64,000 nucleotides of DNA from a virus (lineage: Duplodnaviria > Heunggongvirae > Uroviricota > Caudoviricetes), in IMG/VR virus record IMGVR_UViG_3300025649_000002, positions 1 through 64,000 of that record; one strand, written 5' to 3'. Positions 5,138 to 61,957 of this stretch are shown here, piece after piece. Numbering within the stretch: position 1 is the first letter of the stretch; each line of letters starts with the position of its first letter. Under the pieces are notes generated by a model. The model made no database searches and was not told the DNA's origin. It saw only the letters and a program-made list of their open reading frames with translations. A program made the position numbers and the translations under genes.

Positions 5138-5434
5138 ATGTCCAAAATTGAATTCTATAAAAAGAATTGGAAGATGGGCATACATTTAGTATTTAAAACA
5201 AAAAGATTCGGGGTTAATAATCGGTGGTGGTCGGATTTTGATTCAATGTTTACATGGTCATGGAGACAAAGAATTATAGCGATCATCACTATACGCCCAT
5301 TCATAGAGAATTTAAAACTTATACATTTTCGTGCAGTTGCATGTCATTTTATGACAGATGAAGAAAAGAAAATTGTCGGTTGGTATAAAACAACCCCTTG
5401 GTGGACTAAAATAAATGGACGGTACTTACAATAA
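5138..5434 (+). CDS. hypothetical protein
   Basis: ORF track. Confidence 0.3.
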   Translation: MSKIEFYKKNWKMGIHLVFKTKRFGVNNRWWSDFDSMFTWSWRQRIIAIITIRPFIENLKLIHFRAVACHFMTDEEKKIVGWYKTTPWWTKINGRYLQ

Positions 5435-5536
5435 AAAATTGATAAATCAAGTTCGAGAAATATCTGCAAAGGATATAGAATTATTTGGATATGATTTTGA
5501 TGAACATGAAAAATAACCAAAAAAAGGAGATAATAT

Positions 5537-6040
5537 ATGACTGACAAAGAAGCAATAGAATGGATTGAAAATGGTTATTTTGTAATTGCTAATAATAAAT
5601 TGTATGCTGTCAACTCATCTTCTAAGATGATTAAACATGCAGAAAAAATAAAATTTATGAGTGAATTTTGTGAGTGGGAAGATCGTGATAAACCAGAAGA
5701 ACATGAAAAATTGAAAAAACGTTTTCCTAATCATTCAGTAAGAATGATAGATGATACTAGGGTCAATGTAAATATAAGAGATCTTATAGTACCTCTACAA
5801 GAGGAGGAACAAAAAATGATAAAACCATCGGTCATTGTTGTTGATAAATTAACATACAATGATATAGTTGATGAGAAATTAAGAATTCTTATAAAAACAC
5901 TTGATGGTATGGCACAATCAAGAGGATATTTATCTGCAATAAAAACTGTTGAAACACCAACAGGATTGATTAAGAATACCGAGCGTGATTATGTAGATGC
6001 AATTCATCAGATTGCATCATTTTTCAAAAATAATGAATAA
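5537..6040 (+). CDS. hypothetical protein
   Basis: ORF with AAGGAG RBS. Confidence 0.45.
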   Translation: MTDKEAIEWIENGYFVIANNKLYAVNSSSKMIKHAEKIKFMSEFCEWEDRDKPEEHEKLKKRFPNHSVRMIDDTRVNVNIRDLIVPLQEEEQKMIKPSVIVVDKLTYNDIVDEKLRILIKTLDGMAQSRGYLSAIKTVETPTGLIKNTERDYVDAIHQIASFFKNNE

Positions 6041-26541: not shown

Positions 26542-27432
26542 ATGGCGGTAGCAACAGTAAAGATTTTAGGTTTACCAACAGTAACAACAGTAGCAGGAAA
26601 TGTAAAATGTGCAAAGATTGAATTAACATCTCAGAATACGGCCAATAGAGTAAGAATTCAATTAACACCGTTGACAGATGCATTCAATCTTGAAATGGGA
26701 AACAATTTTAATAAAAATCTTGTTCCTCATTTATTCCCGAATATTCATTATACAATGTTACATCCGGCAGGAGATACATGTAGAACATGTGCAGGGAAAT
26801 TGGAGAGTTGTACTCCATCATGTTGGGAGAATGATTGCCCGTATACTATAAAGTATTGTAATAATTATCCATATATTTTATCAAAATATCTTCCAGGAAA
26901 TCCTTGGTCGTTTGTTATGTTAAGAGGACAAATTGAATGGCACTTTGATAATAAAATTTTCGATTGTTTTTGTAGATTTGGTACTCGAGTTAATATGATA
27001 TTTCATCATCTCACATCTGATCCTACTAATGATTCATATATGGGTCATAGATTTGTTGAAAACGGAACTCATAAAAGTATTCATAGTATATCAAATCATA
27101 CTGAGAATAAATTCAATCGTATTTCAGAACAATATAGACTTGCTAAATTACAAAAGAAATCGGGGTGTGTTACACAAGGCACTATTGTGTCATTGAAGCA
27201 GGCACGTAATATCGCCCGAATTGCTATGCATAAAGCAACTGATGGAATTAGAAATGTAGAAGAAGCTCCAGATATGGCATTTGTTATGGCAAATTATAGA
27301 CATGCATTTAAACAAGGTCAATTGTATCTTCCTATTCCAATAGGAAATCATACAGCAGCATCCGCTTCGAGTTTTAAAAATAGGCGTAAAGCGAGAACAA
27401 AAGAAGAAATGATAGCAGCAGGCCTTTTATAA
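26542..27432 (+). CDS. hypothetical Cys-rich protein
   Basis: AAGGAGG RBS; CRTCAGKLESCTPSCWENDCPY cluster. Confidence 0.45.
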   Translation: MAVATVKILGLPTVTTVAGNVKCAKIELTSQNTANRVRIQLTPLTDAFNLEMGNNFNKNLVPHLFPNIHYTMLHPAGDTCRTCAGKLESCTPSCWENDCPYTIKYCNNYPYILSKYLPGNPWSFVMLRGQIEWHFDNKIFDCFCRFGTRVNMIFHHLTSDPTNDSYMGHRFVENGTHKSIHSISNHTENKFNRISEQYRLAKLQKKSGCVTQGTIVSLKQARNIARIAMHKATDGIRNVEEAPDMAFVMANYRHAFKQGQLYLPIPIGNHTAASASSFKNRRKARTKEEMIAAGLL

Positions 27433-27442
27433 ATAAAACTAT

Positions 27443-27520
27443 GCCGGATGAAACTCGGTTTTATCGCCGAGCCGGCTCCATACATAAGAGGGGATAGGGT
27501 CAAACCTATTCCCTCTTTTG
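27443..27520 (+). terminator. two consecutive GC-rich hairpins, second followed by TTTTG
   Basis: GCCGG..CTCGG..CCGAGCCGGC nested stem, then GAGGGGATAGG/CCTATTCCCTC. Confidence 0.5.
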
Positions 27521-27599
27521 CCAAACTAAATCGCCATCTTCCATAATTAGAACAAATTTAAAACATGGGAGTGATTGATATGAAATTATTGAGGAGGTA

Positions 27600-27878
27600 A
27601 TGGATATGAAAATGTTGAAATTAAGGATTATGATATATTGGAATTGGATATTGGATATATTGAGTCTGTTAAAATCAAAGATTAGAGTATGGTGGCATAG
27701 ATTATTCATTCGAAGAGATGAATTTCATCATTCATTAGATATGGATATATCAGCGATGTTACATATGAATCAATCGAAAAGAGATAAATATTTAAAAGAT
27801 CTTAGTAAAAGAAGACAGGTTGCTCATGATAGAGATTTTGAACAGGAAATGAAGATAGTAAGAGGAGCTCTTGAATAA
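27600..27878 (+). CDS. hypothetical protein
   Basis: GAGGAGG RBS; preceded by promoter-like motif at 27548. Confidence 0.35.
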   Translation: MDMKMLKLRIMIYWNWILDILSLLKSKIRVWWHRLFIRRDEFHHSLDMDISAMLHMNQSKRDKYLKDLSKRRQVAHDRDFEQEMKIVRGALE

Positions 27879-28282
27879 TGAAGAAATTAATATGCACAGT
27901 AGGACTACCGAGAAGCGGGAAATCGACATGGGCAAAAGAACAGAACCTTCCAATGGTAAATCCTGATTCGATTCGACTTGGATTATATGGTGAAGCATTT
28001 ATCAAAGAAGCAGAACATATGGTATGGTCTATAGCGACATATATGGTTAAGGCATTGTTTATCGCTGGTCATGATACAGTAATATTAGATGCTACAAGTC
28101 TCACAGTCGCTGCAAGAAATAAATGGCGTTATAATGACTGGGAATGCGAATGGAAAATGTTTGATACTTCAAAAGAAGAATGTATTAGGAGAGCTATTGT
28201 AAGTGAACGTGAAGATCTTATCCATGTAATTGAAATGATGGATACTCATAAAGATATATATGATATTGAAGAAGAAAACTAG
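27878..28282 (+). CDS. P-loop kinase (AAA_33 / polynucleotide-kinase-like)
   Basis: Walker A GLPRSGKST; Walker B-like VILDAT. Confidence 0.55.
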   Translation: MKKLICTVGLPRSGKSTWAKEQNLPMVNPDSIRLGLYGEAFIKEAEHMVWSIATYMVKALFIAGHDTVILDATSLTVAARNKWRYNDWECEWKMFDTSKEECIRRAIVSEREDLIHVIEMMDTHKDIYDIEEEN

Positions 28283-28370
28283 GCAAAAAACGAGGCCCTC
28301 AATAGGCCCCAATCGGGGTCTAAAATTTTGTGAGGACTATTATATAGGTTATAATACTTTTTACTAACTG

Positions 28371-28494
28371 TCAATCTGTTCTCCAATATGATTTCTCAAT
28401 TTTAAAACTTCAATATGTTTTACAATAAGCCTTTCAATATAATTTCCAATGTAAAACTAGTTATACAATTTAAAATTCAATCGGTCCTGCAATG
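28371..28494. repeat. iteron-like array: 10 CAAT-centred units at about 12-bp spacing
   Basis: CAAT at 28372, 28384, 28397, 28411, 28423, 28435, 28447, 28466, 28478, 28490 inside a 400-bp non-coding gap. Confidence 0.5.
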
Positions 28495-28625
28495 AAAATG
28501 GTCTGGGGTTTTTAAAGATGGGTTTTTACTAGGGGTTAATACATCGATGGAATATAGGTGAGTTAAACGGAGGCGAAAACTAAACATTTAAATACATAAA
28601 TGATAGTGTTCAAGATTTAATATAT

Positions 28626-28677
28626 ATAGAACAAATTCGCCATCCATAAATGGTAAATTAGAACAAATATTAAAAAG
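28626..28677 (+). promoter_or_regulatory. two tandem TAGAACAAAT promoter-like motifs
   Basis: Copies at 28626 and 28658 upstream of 28689. Confidence 0.45.
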
Positions 28678-28688
28678 GATTATATGTC

Positions 28689-29315
28689 ATGTCACATACA
28701 ACATACTTTGAAGTTTCTGATATTTTGACAGAATCAGCACAACTTCCTATAAATCCAGACCCTAGAATACAGTCACAAATGCGAGAATTTTTAATGACTG
28801 CAAACTATAGTCTTAAAAAAGGAAATCTGCCCTCCTTAGATAAAATGCCATCATCTTTAAAAATGATTATGGAAAAATTTCCACCAGAAAGAATCTTATC
28901 ATTTGCGAAAAACGATAGACGAGAATTGGATAAGATTGCAAAGGCCGCTGGAAAAATAACAAATAATCGTTCCTTTCAATATGCAATCGCAGCAGGTGCA
29001 ATATTAAAATCTCGAATTAATAAGGAGGATGTAAAAAAGTCCTTAAAAGATATTATTGATTTAATTAAAAAACATAAATCAAAAATCATTGAGGTTGCAA
29101 TTGCTGGTGTCCTTATAGGAATATTATGGTGGTGGATTTCATCTGTTGCATGGATTCCAACATTTTTATTTGGTCTTATATTATTTACTTTAGTATGTTG
29201 GGGTATTAAAACTGCTACTCCTCCTGGTAGTGAAAATGATGATGAATTAAGTTCTGGTAGTTCATCAAGAGGTACTTCTTCAAAAGGTAAGGGTGGGAGT
29301 GATAGTATACTATAA
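28689..29315 (+). CDS. membrane protein with Ser/Gly-rich C-terminal tail
   Basis: C-terminal TM helices. Confidence 0.45.
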   Translation: MSHTTYFEVSDILTESAQLPINPDPRIQSQMREFLMTANYSLKKGNLPSLDKMPSSLKMIMEKFPPERILSFAKNDRRELDKIAKAAGKITNNRSFQYAIAAGAILKSRINKEDVKKSLKDIIDLIKKHKSKIIEVAIAGVLIGILWWWISSVAWIPTFLFGLILFTLVCWGIKTATPPGSENDDELSSGSSSRGTSSKGKGGSDSIL

Positions 29316-29896
29316 TGAAAAATTATCAAGAAGACTGGTTAGACCATGTTAAGTTCAAACATATTTCATACGATGAGTTTCCATTAGCAAAAGAGAAACG
29401 ATACTATTTTTTAGAAAAAGTTTCGGGTCGAGAGTCATCTGTTGTATATAAAAGAAATAAACATTGTTATATGATTGATAGAAATAATGATGTATATGAG
29501 GATTTATATTTATTAGATATGTACAAGAAAGTATTAGATTCTAAAAAATCAATTGATTCTATAATCATTCCTGGTGAAATGATTGCAATTCATCGTGGTA
29601 GAATATTACCAATTAATCAATTAGAAAATTTATTAAAACGATTTTCGACAAGTCGTGATTTGAATAAATTAATCAATCATTATCCATATGATATACTTGC
29701 ATTAAATAATAGACATATAGATTTTTCTACCGTTGTTAATTATCTTACAATGTTTTATATGAAACCACTCATAAAGGTTCCTAAATTTTTCAAAGGTGAT
29801 TTGGAATTAGCATGGAAAAATTTTGTGAAAAAAAGAGGTATTGAAGGATTAATGGCCAGAAAAGAAGGTGGTCCCAATTATTTAATTTTGAAATAG
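29315..29896 (+). CDS. hypothetical protein
   Basis: ORF track, coupled (ATGA). Confidence 0.4.
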   Translation: MKNYQEDWLDHVKFKHISYDEFPLAKEKRYYFLEKVSGRESSVVYKRNKHCYMIDRNNDVYEDLYLLDMYKKVLDSKKSIDSIIIPGEMIAIHRGRILPINQLENLLKRFSTSRDLNKLINHYPYDILALNNRHIDFSTVVNYLTMFYMKPLIKVPKFFKGDLELAWKNFVKKRGIEGLMARKEGGPNYLILK

Positions 29897-29902
29897 GATA
29901 TT

Positions 29903-30754
29903 ATGAAACTAATAGAATCGCTTGGTCCTCATAAATTATTTTATTCATCACCCGGAAATACTGAAGGGTTGACTGATGTAAAACAAACTCTAATTCAACA
30001 CGATGGTACAGTTCTTCTCGATAGTATTCCTATGACAGAATTGGGAGATGGAGTGTATGAATATACTTATAATTTTACTTCTATTGGATGGTATGTGTCT
30101 CACGGGATTAGTGACTCCTTGGGTGGGTCAGATTTGGAGTCGTTACGGGTTGGTGATCCTAGTAACGATTACGTTTATGCGGGTGGCCCAAATGACACCA
30201 CAGTTTCTTACGAAGTTAATACCTTGGATGACACTAATGTAATGACAGGTTGGATGAATGAAATTGGCACCACAAAAATATTCTGGGTCGATGTTACATC
30301 CTTACCTGATGATAAATATTTTTTCAAAATGAATGGAAGAGATACTGCTCGTTTTAATTATCCATTTATACTTCCAACAATTACACCAAAAGGAGTTAAA
30401 TTAGTCCTTGAAAAAGGATATAATTTGTCTGCCTTCTCGGGGACAGGGAAATACAATTTCGATTCAACGGCCGGTGTTTGGGTCAGTCTTTCTAATGATA
30501 TTGAGAATGCGAAAGCATCTGATTTATATGAATATATTAAATATCACTATCCTGCGGTTATTGTACACTATATTAAATCATACTATGAACATCCTACAAA
30601 ACGATTTAAGATTTATGTGCCTGAAATTACACCGAATGATAATGAAAATAATTTTCCTCTGGTTCAAGTCAATCAAGAATCACATCCAGAGAAGAATGCA
30701 TTCTATACTATGTTGACAATGGTGGGAGATGAGATTACAATTGATTGTCGTTAG
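29903..30754 (+). CDS. hypothetical protein
   Basis: ORF track. Confidence 0.45.
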   Translation: MKLIESLGPHKLFYSSPGNTEGLTDVKQTLIQHDGTVLLDSIPMTELGDGVYEYTYNFTSIGWYVSHGISDSLGGSDLESLRVGDPSNDYVYAGGPNDTTVSYEVNTLDDTNVMTGWMNEIGTTKIFWVDVTSLPDDKYFFKMNGRDTARFNYPFILPTITPKGVKLVLEKGYNLSAFSGTGKYNFDSTAGVWVSLSNDIENAKASDLYEYIKYHYPAVIVHYIKSYYEHPTKRFKIYVPEITPNDNENNFPLVQVNQESHPEKNAFYTMLTMVGDEITIDCR

Positions 30755-36638: not shown

Positions 36639-36980
36639 CTAATCGTGTATAGATTCCTTTATTTTATATGCAAGATTTTGCACACATTCTGGTGCATCAT
36701 CTGGTATTATCAATATAATTTTATCATTTTTCAATTTATCAAATTTCAATTTTCCTTTAAATCCTGGAATACCGAATGCCCAATGTCCCAATATTTTAAT
36801 TTTCAATTCTTTTCCAATTGATGAATAATCATCCAATAAAATCTTTGTTCCATATAGTCGGGAGTTTTTTAATTTTTCCCTTGCAATCCTCTTCACAACC
36901 GAAACAACTCCACGTGAGTCTATCTCTAATATGTTTACCGAATAAGTCGGGTTTGTCGGAAGTACAGGTTTGCCATTCAT
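36639..36980 (-). CDS. hypothetical protein
   Basis: Coupled downstream of AAA+ gene. Confidence 0.4.
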   Translation of the reverse strand: MNGKPVLPTNPTYSVNILEIDSRGVVSVVKRIAREKLKNSRLYGTKILLDDYSSIGKELKIKILGHWAFGIPGFKGKLKFDKLKNDKIILIIPDDAPECVQNLAYKIKESIHD

Positions 36981-36983
36981 AAT

Positions 36984-38252
36984 TTAAATCACTTTCGCAA
37001 GTTCTTTAAGGACAGGATTTCCTTTTAAAACTTTACGGGTAAAATCAACAGATCCCTTTTCCTTCTCTTCATAAATTAAAAGTTTAAGACCAAGGGGAAC
37101 AATAGGTCTAGCAACATTCGTCATTTTCTCAATAACATGACGATAACCATCCAAAATATCTTTATCTTCTTTTGTGACCTTGAAATTCTTTGGTCGCATT
37201 TTCTTAATCAATTCATTGGTTACGGCAGTAATACATGAATATGCCTTAACCTTATTTTTCACGAAATCATTCCAATCGACTTTTGTTCGACCGAGAAGAA
37301 TACCTTCCGCATCCCACTGCATTAACAGTGTACGATATTCAATGAACTTGGTAGCGTAATCATCGCCAACATGTCCTTTAAGTATTTGAAATATTGAACC
37401 ATTCTCCAACCTGTTATTACCAGCGGAATGTTCATACTCATCAAGAGTATATGCTGCATTCGTCCATGATCTTGGAGACGCCCACGCACGAGATTCCATA
37501 GGTGTTGATTGAAGATAATTTGGATAATACTGAATGAATGAGATAATATCCTGACGCAAACCTTTCTTTATTGCAAAGTTCTTTGTCCATGCATCAGCAT
37601 TACTTTCAACATCCAAAAAGAATATTCTGTTCGCAACAGGTGCTAGGATTTGTTGAAACCCTGCTTTATCATCTGAACGATTACCTGCCATTATAATTGA
37701 TACATTATCAGGCAATTTATGATTATGAATTGACCGATATGTTAGAAGTTGAAATAAATATCCCTGAATAGTTTTGTTGCATAGATGTGCATCATCCAAC
37801 AGAAGAATCATTGGAGACTTATCAGGATCTTTAGGTTTGACACGAAGATTTTTAAATGAAAATAATTCAGGTAAAGACCATTTCGTGTACAATGAATCAC
37901 GTGGTGCTTTGACTTCGGGAATATCAATCGTTTTTCCAAATAATGAGATATTACCAAGTTTCTTCACCAATTCAGACAACCATGTCAATGCAGGACTGAA
38001 TCCTCCAACTTTTGGAAGACCTGTAATCTGCTCCAATAACATCGTTGCTACATATGCAACATTCAAACCCCATCCACGCTCAGTACAAATCTGTTCGAAT
38101 ACATCAGACTTGCCAATACCTGGAGGACCTGATATCCACAGGATTGAATGACCGAAATTCTTTTCTATCGCACGATCTCTCATCGCAACATGATTTTCAA
38201 TGAATCTCTTTGCATCATTAAGTTCAATTTTCAATTCCATATTTACTGCCAT
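36984..38252 (-). CDS. AAA+ ATPase, MoxR/CobS-like
   Basis: Walker A GPPGIGKS; Walker B MILLLDDAH. Confidence 0.6.
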   Translation of the reverse strand: MAVNMELKIELNDAKRFIENHVAMRDRAIEKNFGHSILWISGPPGIGKSDVFEQICTERGWGLNVAYVATMLLEQITGLPKVGGFSPALTWLSELVKKLGNISLFGKTIDIPEVKAPRDSLYTKWSLPELFSFKNLRVKPKDPDKSPMILLLDDAHLCNKTIQGYLFQLLTYRSIHNHKLPDNVSIIMAGNRSDDKAGFQQILAPVANRIFFLDVESNADAWTKNFAIKKGLRQDIISFIQYYPNYLQSTPMESRAWASPRSWTNAAYTLDEYEHSAGNNRLENGSIFQILKGHVGDDYATKFIEYRTLLMQWDAEGILLGRTKVDWNDFVKNKVKAYSCITAVTNELIKKMRPKNFKVTKEDKDILDGYRHVIEKMTNVARPIVPLGLKLLIYEEKEKGSVDFTRKVLKGNPVLKELAKVI

Positions 38253-38270
38253 TGGGGTATCTCCTTCACT

Positions 38271-39776
38271 TTATTTAATTCGGATTATCCGACCAGACAC
38301 ATTTTTATACTTGCCATGATTATGATTTACAATATAGATACGAGGAATATCTAACGGCATCAACTTCTGGGTTTCCTCAATATCCGATTCCATATCTGTT
38401 ACTGCTATGAAACATGATATCATTGCATCCGGATCTGAACGTATGATTTCATTCACTCTCTCAAATACATCTTTATGAGAGGTACCACCGAATGTGCGTC
38501 TTGTCAATACTGCTTCCACATCAAGTTCATCAGAAGTGTATTTCTTTTCCCAACTGATAGAATAGTCATGTTTTATAACTATAATATCTTTAAAATGATC
38601 CTTCGAATCATTAACAATTGATGCTGCTTTTCTCACATCATCATCAGACATTGAACCTGATTCATCAACGGAGAAAATCACTGTTCCGTATCGTTCTTCC
38701 TCATCAATAGATGGGAGATATGGAAGTGAAGGATTTGCCATCCATGAGGTTCTAGGTTTGCCCCATGTTAAATCTGACGATTTTTCCATTGCTGTCAAAA
38801 TCGAATCTGCCAATATTTTACCCCAATCAATTTGAACTTTAAATAATCTTTGTAGGAAACTCTTCAATTCTGCAGAGCCAACACCTTTTCGTAATGAAGA
38901 TTCAAGGAGTTGTCGTGACATAGAGACTCGTTGTTGTCGTTTTTCGTCGGCCTCTTTTTTCACTGCTTCTGATTCATATTCAATATCTGGAAAATTTACA
39001 TCTGTGTGGTTGAATTTCTTTCCGCCACCCATATCCAATTCAACTTCAGTAATTTCTACTTGAGGTTCTTCTTCTCCATCACCACCTGTACCACCATCTT
39101 CATCAGGTTCTTCTTCACCTGGTTTTTCTTTACCACTCCCTTTACCACTCTTTTTACCATCTTTATCTGGTTTTCCTGTTCCACTACCTTCTCCATCTCC
39201 AGGTTGTGGATCACCTTCTCCATCGCCTTCGCCTTCCATTCCTTTCATGAATTCAGACAATGCAACAGAATACTTTTTCTTGGTAACCATTTTCTTTTTG
39301 AAAAGTTTGTCATAGACTTCCTCTTCAATCATATTCTCAAACTGTTCATCATACAAAAAGTCATTCTTATACCTTTTGTCTGTCACTATATTTTTGAGAA
39401 TACTATTTTCTCCTGCCTCAACTGCAAGACAAAAGACTAAAGCATTGATTACCAAATCGCCAGCAAAATTCCAAATGGTCTTATCACGATGACCTACTCT
39501 CGCAGTGTGTTTTAACAGGACATGCATGTCTTCATGAATCAACACGAATGCCATTATTTCATCAGGAGTAAATTGTGTGTACATTGGTGATGTTGGATTA
39601 ATGAAAATCTTTTCACCTTCTTCCCATATCGCTGCAGGATGCGGGAGAGATGTTGTGAATATAATATCATATGATAACAATTCAGGCATAAACGGTAAAA
39701 AGATATCCTCACGCAATAATTTTGAAATGACCATATCGACAGTCAGTTTCGTTTGTTCGATCAGAGATTCATCCAT
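38271..39776 (-). CDS. HExxH metallopeptidase-like N-domain plus VWA domain protein (DUF2201/CobT-like architecture)
   Basis: IHEDMHVLLKH (HExxH); acidic Gly/Glu/Asp linker; MIDAS DESGSM (DxSxS). Confidence 0.55.
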   Translation of the reverse strand: MDESLIEQTKLTVDMVISKLLREDIFLPFMPELLSYDIIFTTSLPHPAAIWEEGEKIFINPTSPMYTQFTPDEIMAFVLIHEDMHVLLKHTARVGHRDKTIWNFAGDLVINALVFCLAVEAGENSILKNIVTDKRYKNDFLYDEQFENMIEEEVYDKLFKKKMVTKKKYSVALSEFMKGMEGEGDGEGDPQPGDGEGSGTGKPDKDGKKSGKGSGKEKPGEEEPDEDGGTGGDGEEEPQVEITEVELDMGGGKKFNHTDVNFPDIEYESEAVKKEADEKRQQRVSMSRQLLESSLRKGVGSAELKSFLQRLFKVQIDWGKILADSILTAMEKSSDLTWGKPRTSWMANPSLPYLPSIDEEERYGTVIFSVDESGSMSDDDVRKAASIVNDSKDHFKDIIVIKHDYSISWEKKYTSDELDVEAVLTRRTFGGTSHKDVFERVNEIIRSDPDAMISCFIAVTDMESDIEETQKLMPLDIPRIYIVNHNHGKYKNVSGRIIRIK

Positions 39777-47579: not shown

Positions 47580-48284
47580 ATGACCCCCGATAATATTTTC
47601 TATACTTATATATACTTAGATCCCAGAAAATTCGGTGTGTATGAATATGGTAATTATAAATTTGATGCGGAACCATTTTATGTAGGTAAAGGGAAAGATG
47701 ATAGATATTTGTTTTATATTCATGAAGCAAAGAGTCATTCTATAAAATATGTTGGAAATAAACATATATATTATAAAATAAAGAAAATTCTAAAAGTGGG
47801 TCTTGAACCTATTATTTTAAAAATTGAAGAGAATTTATTTGAACAATCCGCATTAGATTTAGAAATATGGACGATATGGGCGATTGGTCGTAGTGATTTA
47901 AAATTAGGACCATTGACAAATCTTACAGTTGGTGGAGATGGATTATCTGGACAAATTCTTTCAGATGAACATAAAAGAAAATTATCTGTTGCGCACAAAG
48001 GAAAAATTCTTTCAGATGAACATAAAAGAAAATTATCTGTTGCGCACAAAGGAAAAAATAATCCTTTTTTTGGTCATACCCACACAGCGGCTAGCATTGA
48101 AATAATATCTAAAAAATCATCAAAAACATACCAAGTTTCTTTTCCTGATGGTCATATTGAAGTGATTTCAAATTTGACAAAATTTTCTGCACGCAACGAA
48201 TTGAAATATTCAAGTTTTTTAAATGTTCTCAATAAAGATAAATTATATAAAGGTTATAGGGTAAAGAAGATCATTAATTATTAA
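47580..48284 (+). mobile_element. free-standing GIY-YIG homing endonuclease with tandem NUMOD3-like repeats
   Basis: IYLDP...YVGKGKDDRY GIY-YIG motif; ILSDEHKRKLSVAHKGK x2 encoded by perfect 51-bp tandem repeat 47955..48005 / 48006..48056. Confidence 0.7.
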
Positions 48285-61937: not shown

Positions 61938-61957
61938 CCTTTTTATATTTGTTCTAA
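61938..61957 (-). promoter_or_regulatory. TTAGAACAAATATAAAAAGG promoter-like motif (minus strand)
   Basis: Directly upstream of 61930 start. Confidence 0.45.

Follow-up and report, generated by a model that had tools for sequence, protein, structure and literature searches.

We describe a phased array of ten CAAT boxes that may be a site of cooperative protein binding on duplex DNA. The array lies at 28372-28493 on the + strand of the window, the whole stretch of 64,000 nucleotides (nt) that was analyzed here (positions 1 to 64,000 of IMG/VR virus record IMGVR_UViG_3300025649_000002). Judged by its genes, the window is part of an uncultured myovirus of the T4 superfamily. The array is non-random, non-coding and lineage-specific, its core is selectively conserved, and it is without RNA structure. 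A sequence-only reading of the same DNA had proposed two explanations: the repeats might be iterons of a replication origin, or a DNA-binding protein might bind them cooperatively. The origin failed the tests made of it, and the cooperative protein-bound array is now the best explanation. We hold it tentatively, as a lineage-specific element of duplex DNA with a local, dispensable role in regulation or DNA architecture.

The CAAT boxes are located at 28372, 28384, 28397, 28411, 28423, 28435, 28447, 28466, 28478 and 28490, with successive spacings of 12, 13, 14, 12, 12, 12, 19, 12 and 12 base pairs (bp). These positions and spacings, first given in the sequence-only reading, matched exactly when the sequence was re-read. 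All ten boxes are direct repeats in the same orientation. Two extra CAAT copies occur at 28300 and 28310 within terminator hairpins, and ATTG is absent from the whole gap, its nearest copy lying within the preceding kinase gene at 28265. The gap extends for 406 bp, from the kinase stop (28282) to an ATG at 28689. It had been called non-coding, and indeed holds only open reading frames (ORFs) of up to 36 amino acids (aa).

CAAT has a background frequency of 0.0078 per base in the window, which has a G+C content of 32%. Ten copies in 125 bp is the highest density found in the window, while 200 dinucleotide shuffles of the whole window peak at nine; taken alone, the density is only moderately unusual. 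The phasing is the stronger signal and is not given by chance. Seven of the boxes form a chain with steps of 11-14 bp, and three more follow past the 19-bp step. In 100 dinucleotide shuffles of the whole window, the longest chain with such steps was five for any of the 256 tetramers. When the gap itself was shuffled 5000 times, again preserving dinucleotides so that its richness in CA, AA and AT was retained, the longest chain was three for CAAT and five for any tetramer, and none of the 5000 shuffles attained either 12 CAAT copies or a seven-box chain. Equivalent periodicity in shuffled sequence of the same composition, which would have spoken against the array, was thus not reproduced. An autocorrelation analysis of 28356-28500, also suggested by the sequence-only reading, gave peaks at lag 12 (0.41) and lag 24 (0.44). 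The next-densest stretch of CAAT in the window, with 8 copies in 125 bp (36657-36804), is a codon-usage effect rather than a second array, as these copies are unphased and lie within a - strand gene (36639-36980).

The units of the array share little beyond the box. The CAAT columns are invariant in all ten units (40/40 core positions), and the A+T-rich spacers, 8 nt long apart from single instances of 9, 10 and 15 nt, show 34% identity among units compared with 29% expected from composition. Because the core is invariant while the spacers are almost random, this pattern points to selection on the boxes and not to a decaying tandem repeat. Tandem Repeats Finder did not report the array at a minimum score of 30, since only the core is common to the units. 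A tandem repeat or minisatellite, in which copies are at least about 70% alike, is ruled out by the spacer identity of 0.34 together with this missing report. The earlier statement that the array is not CRISPR-like is correct. The flank consensus proposed with it, yTCAATaTg, holds fully in the CAAT core (10/10) but only loosely outside it (5 to 8 of 10): T occurs at -2 in 8/10 units, at -1 in 5/10 and at +2 in 7/10, and G occurs at +3 in 5/10. By column counts, T-rich runs recur in the 3′ half of the spacers, ahead of the next box.

There is also a larger-scale organization. Blocks of 2, 1, 4 and 3 boxes keep a strict 12-bp register and are parted by the 13-, 14- and 19-bp steps. The array can also be read as two sets of five boxes (28371-28433 and 28434-28500). 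TCAAT and NCAAT boxes alternate along it, and TCAAT-N8-CAAT (repeat family D1) occurs at 28370, 28409 and 28433. The composition of the array is 18% C and 7% G, while G exceeds C on the + strand of the window.

Neither a protein nor a structured RNA is encoded here. No ORF of 37 aa or more covers the array or occurs elsewhere in the gap, and every frame is broken by the 13-, 14- and 19-nt steps and by several stop codons. A protein-coding sequence or pseudogene was rejected on the lack of an open frame and on the unrelated sequence that relatives hold in the same slot. Coding sequence at this place in relatives, which by the sequence-only reading would have counted against the array, is limited to one unrelated ORF of 23 codons in a single allele. 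Rfam gave nothing at gathering score, with only chance-level matches (E above 3), and a tRNA search found none in the region. The predicted folding of 28360-28600 is worse than that of shuffles, with z of +1.86 for the + strand and +2.45 for the - strand. A structured non-coding RNA, riboswitch or tRNA was rejected on the lack of a curated family and on folding below shuffles.

Comparison with relatives reveals that the array is confined to one lineage. At least seven independent assemblies from ENA and JGI carry the array-bearing sequence in identical form. The variant L032, at 99% identity, departs from it only within 28506-28715 and leaves the array unchanged; its differences comprise a 14-bp deletion of a G/T repeat unit (28506-28519), a 1-bp insertion and 6 substitutions, and cluster around the promoter and first codons of the downstream gene, orf208. 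Four independent contigs (L022, L023, L024 and L028) also end inside 28506-28715. This segment is a microdiversity hotspot beside an unaltered array, which probably explains why several contigs end in the gap.

Two syntenic sister lineages, L029 (76-86% identical in neighboring DNA) and L155/L156 (80-86% identity), retain the left terminator, the right hairpin, the proximal TAGAACAAAT promoter-like motif and both flanking operons. By blastn and alignments, homology between L029 and the window ends at 28333 and resumes at 28575 (28334-28574 lost), and homology with L155 ends at 28366 and resumes at 28596 (28367-28595 lost). The slots of L029 and L155 contain their own unrelated sequence, 198 and 122 bp respectively, with no CAAT array, phased motif or autocorrelation peak; the L029 slot holds the 23-codon ORF, which has a GGAGG site. 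Since the sisters carry unrelated sequence in the slot, the array is part of a lineage-specific non-coding cassette of about 230 bp (28334-28595 by breakpoints and alignments) and not a core element. For the phage group as a whole, the array is non-essential. Lineage-specific DNA also lies upstream of the kinase gene, which marks the region as hyperplastic.

Searches for further alleles found no other array of this kind. A nucleotide search with 27000-30000 against 50,697 phage records gave no match, and the cassette had no similarity to any other sequence gathered in this analysis. In IMG/VR, the kinase led to 19 loci, none syntenic and none with a CAAT array. The 208-aa protein encoded downstream led to none there, and three clusters from a search of 5.8 billion proteins led to L029, L155, L156 and L032. 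A scan of viral contigs for CAAT-N8 arrays returned more than 120 matches, none like this array, nearly all being perfect tandem repeats or - strand coding repeats with Ile-Gly/Ala periodicity. Scanning with the terminator 17-mer gave 0 matches in viral contigs and 31 in metagenome contigs, of which only a truncated contig of L029 type (L192) was related, so the 17-mer yielded no new cassette alleles. No second array was present in L158, which reaches 7 kb beyond the window, or in L161.

The cassette is bordered by recognizable signals. At its left border (28291-28322), a terminator scan found two overlapping G+C-rich hairpins that are terminator-like on both strands, one at 28303-28322 (+) and one at 28311-28291 (-), the latter followed by TTTTTT. 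The - strand terminator was also found in L029 and L155, and the 17-mer GGCCCTCAATAGGCCCC is invariant across all three lineages. Immediately downstream is a sigma-70-like promoter candidate, TTGTGA-16-TATAAT (28328-28355, +, 10/12 consensus match), which would initiate about 10 nt ahead of the first CAAT box. Its -35 (as TTGAGA) is retained in L029 and L155 and its -10 is not. It is a candidate only, because such matches are frequent and mostly intragenic in this AT-rich window, where matches to the sigma-70 consensus are not enriched between genes. Promoters of Bacteroidetes type (TTTG ... TAnnTTTG) are absent from the gap and show no enrichment either.

To the right of the array is a second set of short repeats, the G/T repeats GGGGTTTTTA, GGGTTTTTA and GGGGTTAAT (28505-28540, +, steps of 15 and 12 bp; repeat family D7), and GGGTTTTTA is found in 4 copies in the window against 1.04 expected. 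The right border (28575-28611, coordinates read from the sequence) is a conserved A+T-rich hairpin, GAAAACTA ... TAGTGTTC. Its equivalent in L029 (1372-1411) has a perfect stem, TGAAAACTAT / ATAGTTTTCA, and that in L155 (1405-1436) has a stem that is 92% complementary, TGAAAATTATTA / TAATAGTTTTCA. The recurrence of this hairpin in three lineages with differing stem and loop sequences suggests a conserved structure upstream of the promoter motif.

Two copies of the recurrent motif TAGAACAAAT follow at 28627-28636 and 28659-28668 (+), with a small inverted repeat, CCAT...ATGG (28640-28653), between them. The promoter-like motifs that had been placed at 28626 and 28658 are therefore real. Only the proximal copy is kept in L029 and L155. 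The window has 13 exact copies of TAGAACAAAT; allowing up to one mismatch, there are 31 matches against 15.9 expected, a number attained in 0 of 100 shuffles. Examples are at 1384, 7322, 18438, 27548, 28627, 28659, 32977, 44902 and 49349 (+) and at 61956 and 63812 (-). Nearly all copies are oriented with a gene and lie 20-100 nt upstream of a start codon, including those of sheath, baseplate and terminase genes, and the extended consensus is TAGAACAAATATAAAA followed by a ribosome-binding site. The motif fits neither the sigma-70 consensus nor the T4 late consensus TATAAATA, and its placement suggests that it is probably the phage's own, late-type promoter class.

The order of elements, terminator, promoter candidate, array and phage promoter motif, gives the favored reading its context. 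If a sequence-specific protein reads the CAAT boxes directly, it would polymerize cooperatively over about 125 bp. The combination of an invariant core and AT-rich, near-random spacers is what one expects if the core is read directly and the spacers indirectly, and is at odds with a tandem duplication in neutral decay. With 12 bp per unit on DNA of 10.5 bp per turn, neighboring protomers would be rotated by about 50 degrees, so the complex would form a spiral on the duplex, or else wrap the DNA or bring it closer to 12 bp per turn by unwinding. Local transcription control or insulation is the likeliest role, as the array sits between an early-type promoter candidate and the phage promoter motifs of the next operon. 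There it could act as a roadblock, a silencer or an early-to-late switch at the operon boundary, and the non-coding cassette carrying it would be swapped among lineages at the terminator/promoter junction. That a protein binds at all, that it binds duplex DNA, and that the outcome is regulatory are inferred, and the account as a whole falls somewhat short of an even chance.

Several observations weigh against this account. Pfam and PHROG revealed no candidate binder, with no DNA-binding, partition or replication family recognized among about 85 ORFs; for 56 of these, covered by overview scans, families were judged among the top 25 listed per overview, a scope that holds for all statements below about families in the window. 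PDB sequence searches of three neighbor proteins gave no match. Of the neighboring genes, only the 90-aa ORF at 27606-27878 shares the lineage specificity of the array, and it is an ORFan for which neither homologues nor a PDB match were found. No unit of the array fits the IHF consensus WATCAANNNNTTR by eye. Whatever the array does must be dispensable or replaceable, as it is absent from two sisters that keep both flanking operons. Since all copies of the array are identical, comparative evidence for selection is limited to the contrast between core and spacers. Steps of 12 bp do not keep phase with B-DNA, and the register is disrupted by the steps of 13, 14 and 19 bp. Finally, all features apart from the invariance of AAT are also compatible with an element that acts at the RNA level.

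A + strand RNA element would be an unstructured leader, richer in C than in G, that starts from 28328-28355 and serves as a rut-like site or as some other lattice for single-strand binding, so that early transcripts would end ahead of the late-type operon. The C/G ratio is 2.4-3.75; values of 3-3.75 rank at the 95th percentile among 78-nt windows of the + strand and are the highest within the co-directional gene block. C recurs every 12-14 nt with a preceding pyrimidine in 7/10 units, the predicted RNA is less structured than shuffles (the + strand z given above), and a G-rich stretch lies 3′ of the array. Rho, however, reads YC dinucleotides, so the invariant AAT would go unexplained while the preceding pyrimidine varies. 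A strict chain of at least 6 cytosines at 11-13 nt fails at the 14- and 19-nt steps under our re-implemented criteria, the loose rut rule is passed by 7% of all + strand windows, and the leader's promoter is a consensus match of a class that is not enriched between genes. We consider such a leader unlikely. A - strand RNA is another alternative. It would run leftward from the conserved right flank through ten AUUG repeats to the - strand terminator and might titrate a nuclease or an RNA-binding protein, as a sponge or decoy, with the variable cassette as the body of an allelic RNA gene. The better terminator (hairpin plus TTTTTT) is on this strand and is the only one detected in all three lineages, although terminator-like palindromes score on both strands by construction. 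The - strand RNA is also unusually unstructured (z +2.45). A leftward promoter match, TTGAAT-17-TATATT, is present in the conserved right flank of L029 and L155, but the array-bearing lineage has ATGGAT as its -35 at this place and lacks a predicted - strand promoter in that flank, its one match on the strand being GTGACA-17-TAATAT (28695-28667, 9/12). With no Rfam match for this RNA, and as we know of no RNA-binding protein that recognizes AUUG at 12-nt intervals, we regard it as quite improbable. The array could instead be a functionless relic in a fast-turnover spacer, the decayed remnant either of a 12-bp slippage repeat or of - strand coding sequence that had an Ile-X3 (ATT G..) period. 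Three unrelated alleles make the slot hypervariable, a 14-bp slippage indel adjoins the array, and coding DNA of other viral contigs often has ATTG phased at 12 nt, as in glycine-zipper-like segments; one register of the - strand, translated by hand, reads IGNYIERLIVKHI. Neutral decay could not, however, have spared 40/40 core positions while spacers fell to 34% identity. The 13-, 14- and 19-nt steps and several stop codons disrupt every frame, and these breaks are not sequencing errors, given the identity of at least seven independent assemblies. No homologous coding sequence was found among the 50,697 phage records or the sequences gathered here. A relic therefore seems an improbable outcome; if the array is functionless after all, it cautions that a striking periodic motif beside promoters is insufficient to call an origin.

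The two remaining alternatives assign the array to replication or to segregation and packaging. As an origin, its boxes would be iterons for a phage initiator or phased unwinding units, perhaps primed by a transcript from the neighboring promoter, as at T4 origins. The direct repeats do adjoin a promoter candidate, and their layout is loosely like the tandem 13-mers of bacterial unwinding elements. An iteron origin comprises at least three direct repeats, typically about 17-22 bp long and bound by a Rep initiator, with an adjacent unstable A+T-rich element and often DnaA boxes, whereas the units here measure 12 bp and conserve only a 4-bp core. No DnaA-box-like site with up to one mismatch occurs in 27898-29443, and no initiator, helicase, primase or Rep-like family was recognized in the window by Pfam or PHROG. 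A nearest-neighbor calculation of duplex stability puts the array at the 88th-96th percentile for the window, where about thirty places are less stable, so the array is no minimum. The GC-skew check proposed by the sequence-only reading showed cumulative skew climbing monotonically through 14-31 kb with no inflection at 28.4 kb, although skew tracks gene orientation and is a weak test for a multi-origin T4-like phage. The array is missing from the slot in the two syntenic sisters, and the T4 oriE repeats offer no non-coding precedent, being coding sequence in gene 5. An origin finds no support, and we think it very unlikely; these results would be compatible with an accessory origin in a multi-origin phage, though nothing supports one either. 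A partition centromere or packaging (pac) site, bound by a centromere-binding protein or a small-terminase ring, has the right outward form. As in a centromere, short direct repeats, ten in blocks of 2, 1, 4 and 3, precede the next operon by 195 bp. A total of ten, divided into two fives, resembles R1 parC and R388 stbS, and about 120 bp could wrap a decameric ring. The block structure is also like that of tubC (PMC6009700). ParA, ParM, TubZ, ParB and small-terminase families are nevertheless absent from the Pfam and PHROG overviews, the large terminase gene is 33 kb distant, the phage is a T4-like myovirus with no plasmid or lysogeny function seen in the window, and the sisters lack the array. 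These facts leave such a site with hardly any likelihood.

Cooperative protein binding to duplex DNA remains our preferred explanation, and it can be extended into a more specific proposal. The array may be the nucleation site of an undescribed phage nucleoprotein filament, in which the two sets of five boxes recruit an ORFan protein of the phage or host that winds or unwinds about 125 bp between early-type and late-type promoters. It would travel as an ORF-less, mobile cis-regulatory cassette exchanged at the terminator/promoter junction. We consider this proposal doubtful but worth stating. If correct, the cassette is to non-coding DNA what the shuffled cassettes of T4-like hyperplastic regions are to genes, and the shuffling known for genes can also move purely cis-acting DNA. 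If a protein does polymerize on the boxes, a 4-bp word repeated in 10 units at a 12-bp step would make a compact, sequence-defined scaffold for studying how DNA is coated, wrapped or unwound by phage proteins.

The genes on either side of the gap are transcribed in the same direction. Upstream is a P-loop, polynucleotide kinase-like protein of 134 aa (27878-28282, +; Pfam AAA_33, E 1e-9; phrog_505 'polynucleotide kinase', E 3e-16) that is 84-89% identical in the sister lineages. Downstream is a 208-aa protein with a hydrophobic C-terminal half (28689-29315, +), which has no Pfam, PHROG or PDB match and belongs to only three protein clusters among 5.8 billion sequences. It is followed by a ligase-like gene (29315-29896) with a sub-threshold match to DNA_ligase_A_M (E 1.5e-5), and then by a gene for a 283-aa protein. 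The kinase and this ligase- or capping-enzyme-like nucleotidyltransferase are 1 kb apart and, by analogy, may be an RNA-repair pair like T4 Pnk/Rnl.

The T4-like markers elsewhere in the window are a tail sheath, gp25-like and T4-type baseplate proteins, and a T4-type large terminase whose nearest isolates, Flavobacterium phages, are at 30% identity. The window represents a T4-like lineage without cultured relatives. Other genes deserve mention in their own right. A 70-aa ORF (2091-2303, +) is listed in the gene table of L161/L162 with a precomputed match to PF24729 (Acb2_Tad1_hairpin), whose members are nucleotide sponges that act against CBASS and Thoeris. A 153-aa protein (16499-16960, +) is a stand-alone response-regulator receiver domain with no output domain, which is unusual for a phage; the Response_reg match (E 2.8e-24) came from the Pfam overview and was placed on this ORF by reading the sequence. 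Between 19452 and 26227 (+) are two glycosyltransferases, a pyruvyl transferase, a B12-binding radical SAM enzyme, a methyltransferase and a hexapeptide acyltransferase, which may form a glycan or DNA-modification module. On the - strand at 36984-39776, a MoxR-like AAA+ ATPase adjoins a DUF2201 metallopeptidase/VWA protein as a paired module. A GIY-YIG homing endonuclease with duplicated NUMOD3 motifs (47580-48284, +, also placed on its ORF by reading the sequence from overview matches to Pfam) is found among the tail and baseplate genes.

Swapping of sequence at a terminator/promoter junction has been described in T4-like phages. In their genomes, PeSLs (promoter-early stem-loops), each a terminator stem-loop with an early promoter, mark exactly where related genomes change over to unrelated sequence (PMC4122927). 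Here, likewise, the terminator at 28291-28322 and the promoter match at 28328-28355 are at the replacement breakpoint. PeSLs are multi-copy and usually bracket ORFs, whereas this junction is single-copy and what was swapped is a cassette without ORFs; neither the hairpin nor the promoter segment recurs in the 64 kb, even with as many as 3 mismatches.

Among systems with comparable repeats, the '12-nt iterons' of T4 oriE have a function that is still undefined (PMC3016281). In T4 (AF158101, our L154), these repeats lie at 5400-5560, inside gene 5, and follow a 24-nt coding repeat, GTTGAAGGTAAT..., of the gp5 C-terminal beta-helix. Because they coincide with the gp5 coding repeat, they are not a precedent for the array, which is non-coding and lies in a hyperplastic spacer. 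The coding repeat may also explain why no replication role was ever tied to the oriE iterons. Rut sites are defined by C exceeding G, an unstructured stretch of at least 70-80 nt and C every 11-13 nt (PMC6407284). The array is similarly C-over-G and unstructured over about 80-120 nt, with C about every 12 nt, but a rut site requires no invariant tetranucleotide.

The tubC sites of type III TubZRC systems, including that of prophage c-st, consist of short direct repeats in blocks, and the bound protein spreads and bends the DNA (PMC6009700). In tubC and in the present case alike, the blocks of repeats occupy 130-350 bp of non-coding DNA, with a terminator on one side and the next operon's promoter on the other. 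Iterons of two kinds make up the c-st site (PMC6009700); here the CAAT boxes are followed by another type of repeat, GGGTTTTTA. Unlike at tubC, there is no tubR or tubZ, and the downstream operon is also found in lineages that lack the array.

The p6 protein of phi29 provides a match in periodicity. One p6 monomer covers 12 bp and one dimer 24 bp, in a superhelix of about 63 bp per turn, and the complex has a role in the early-to-late transcription switch and in origin activation (PMC10899789). The autocorrelation peaks at lags 12 and 24 match the p6 periods, and each half-array of five boxes spans 63-67 bp. In contrast to what is seen here, p6 reads bendability via the minor groove and not an invariant word, its preferred sites are near genome ends, and phi29 is of another phage family. 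No p6 homologue turned up in the window, although no search aimed at p6 was made.

Finally, the array has the form of the OF/parH site bound by ParG of plasmid TP228, which has 8-12 ACTC tetramer boxes, mostly direct, with AT-rich spacers; one ParG dimer reads each box directly while spacers act indirectly, and the site, coated cooperatively, is both operator and centromere (PMC3130281). The ParG period is 8 bp against 12 bp here, the TP228 boxes are degenerate and the CAAT boxes invariant, and a plasmid is being compared with a T4-like phage in whose window no parF- or parG-like gene and no ribbon-helix-helix protein was recognized. Both are nonetheless arrays of a short tetramer box (ACTC and CAAT), set in A+T-rich spacers upstream of an operon. 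While the CAAT array belongs to no testable known family, its form resembles that of known protein-binding repeat arrays.

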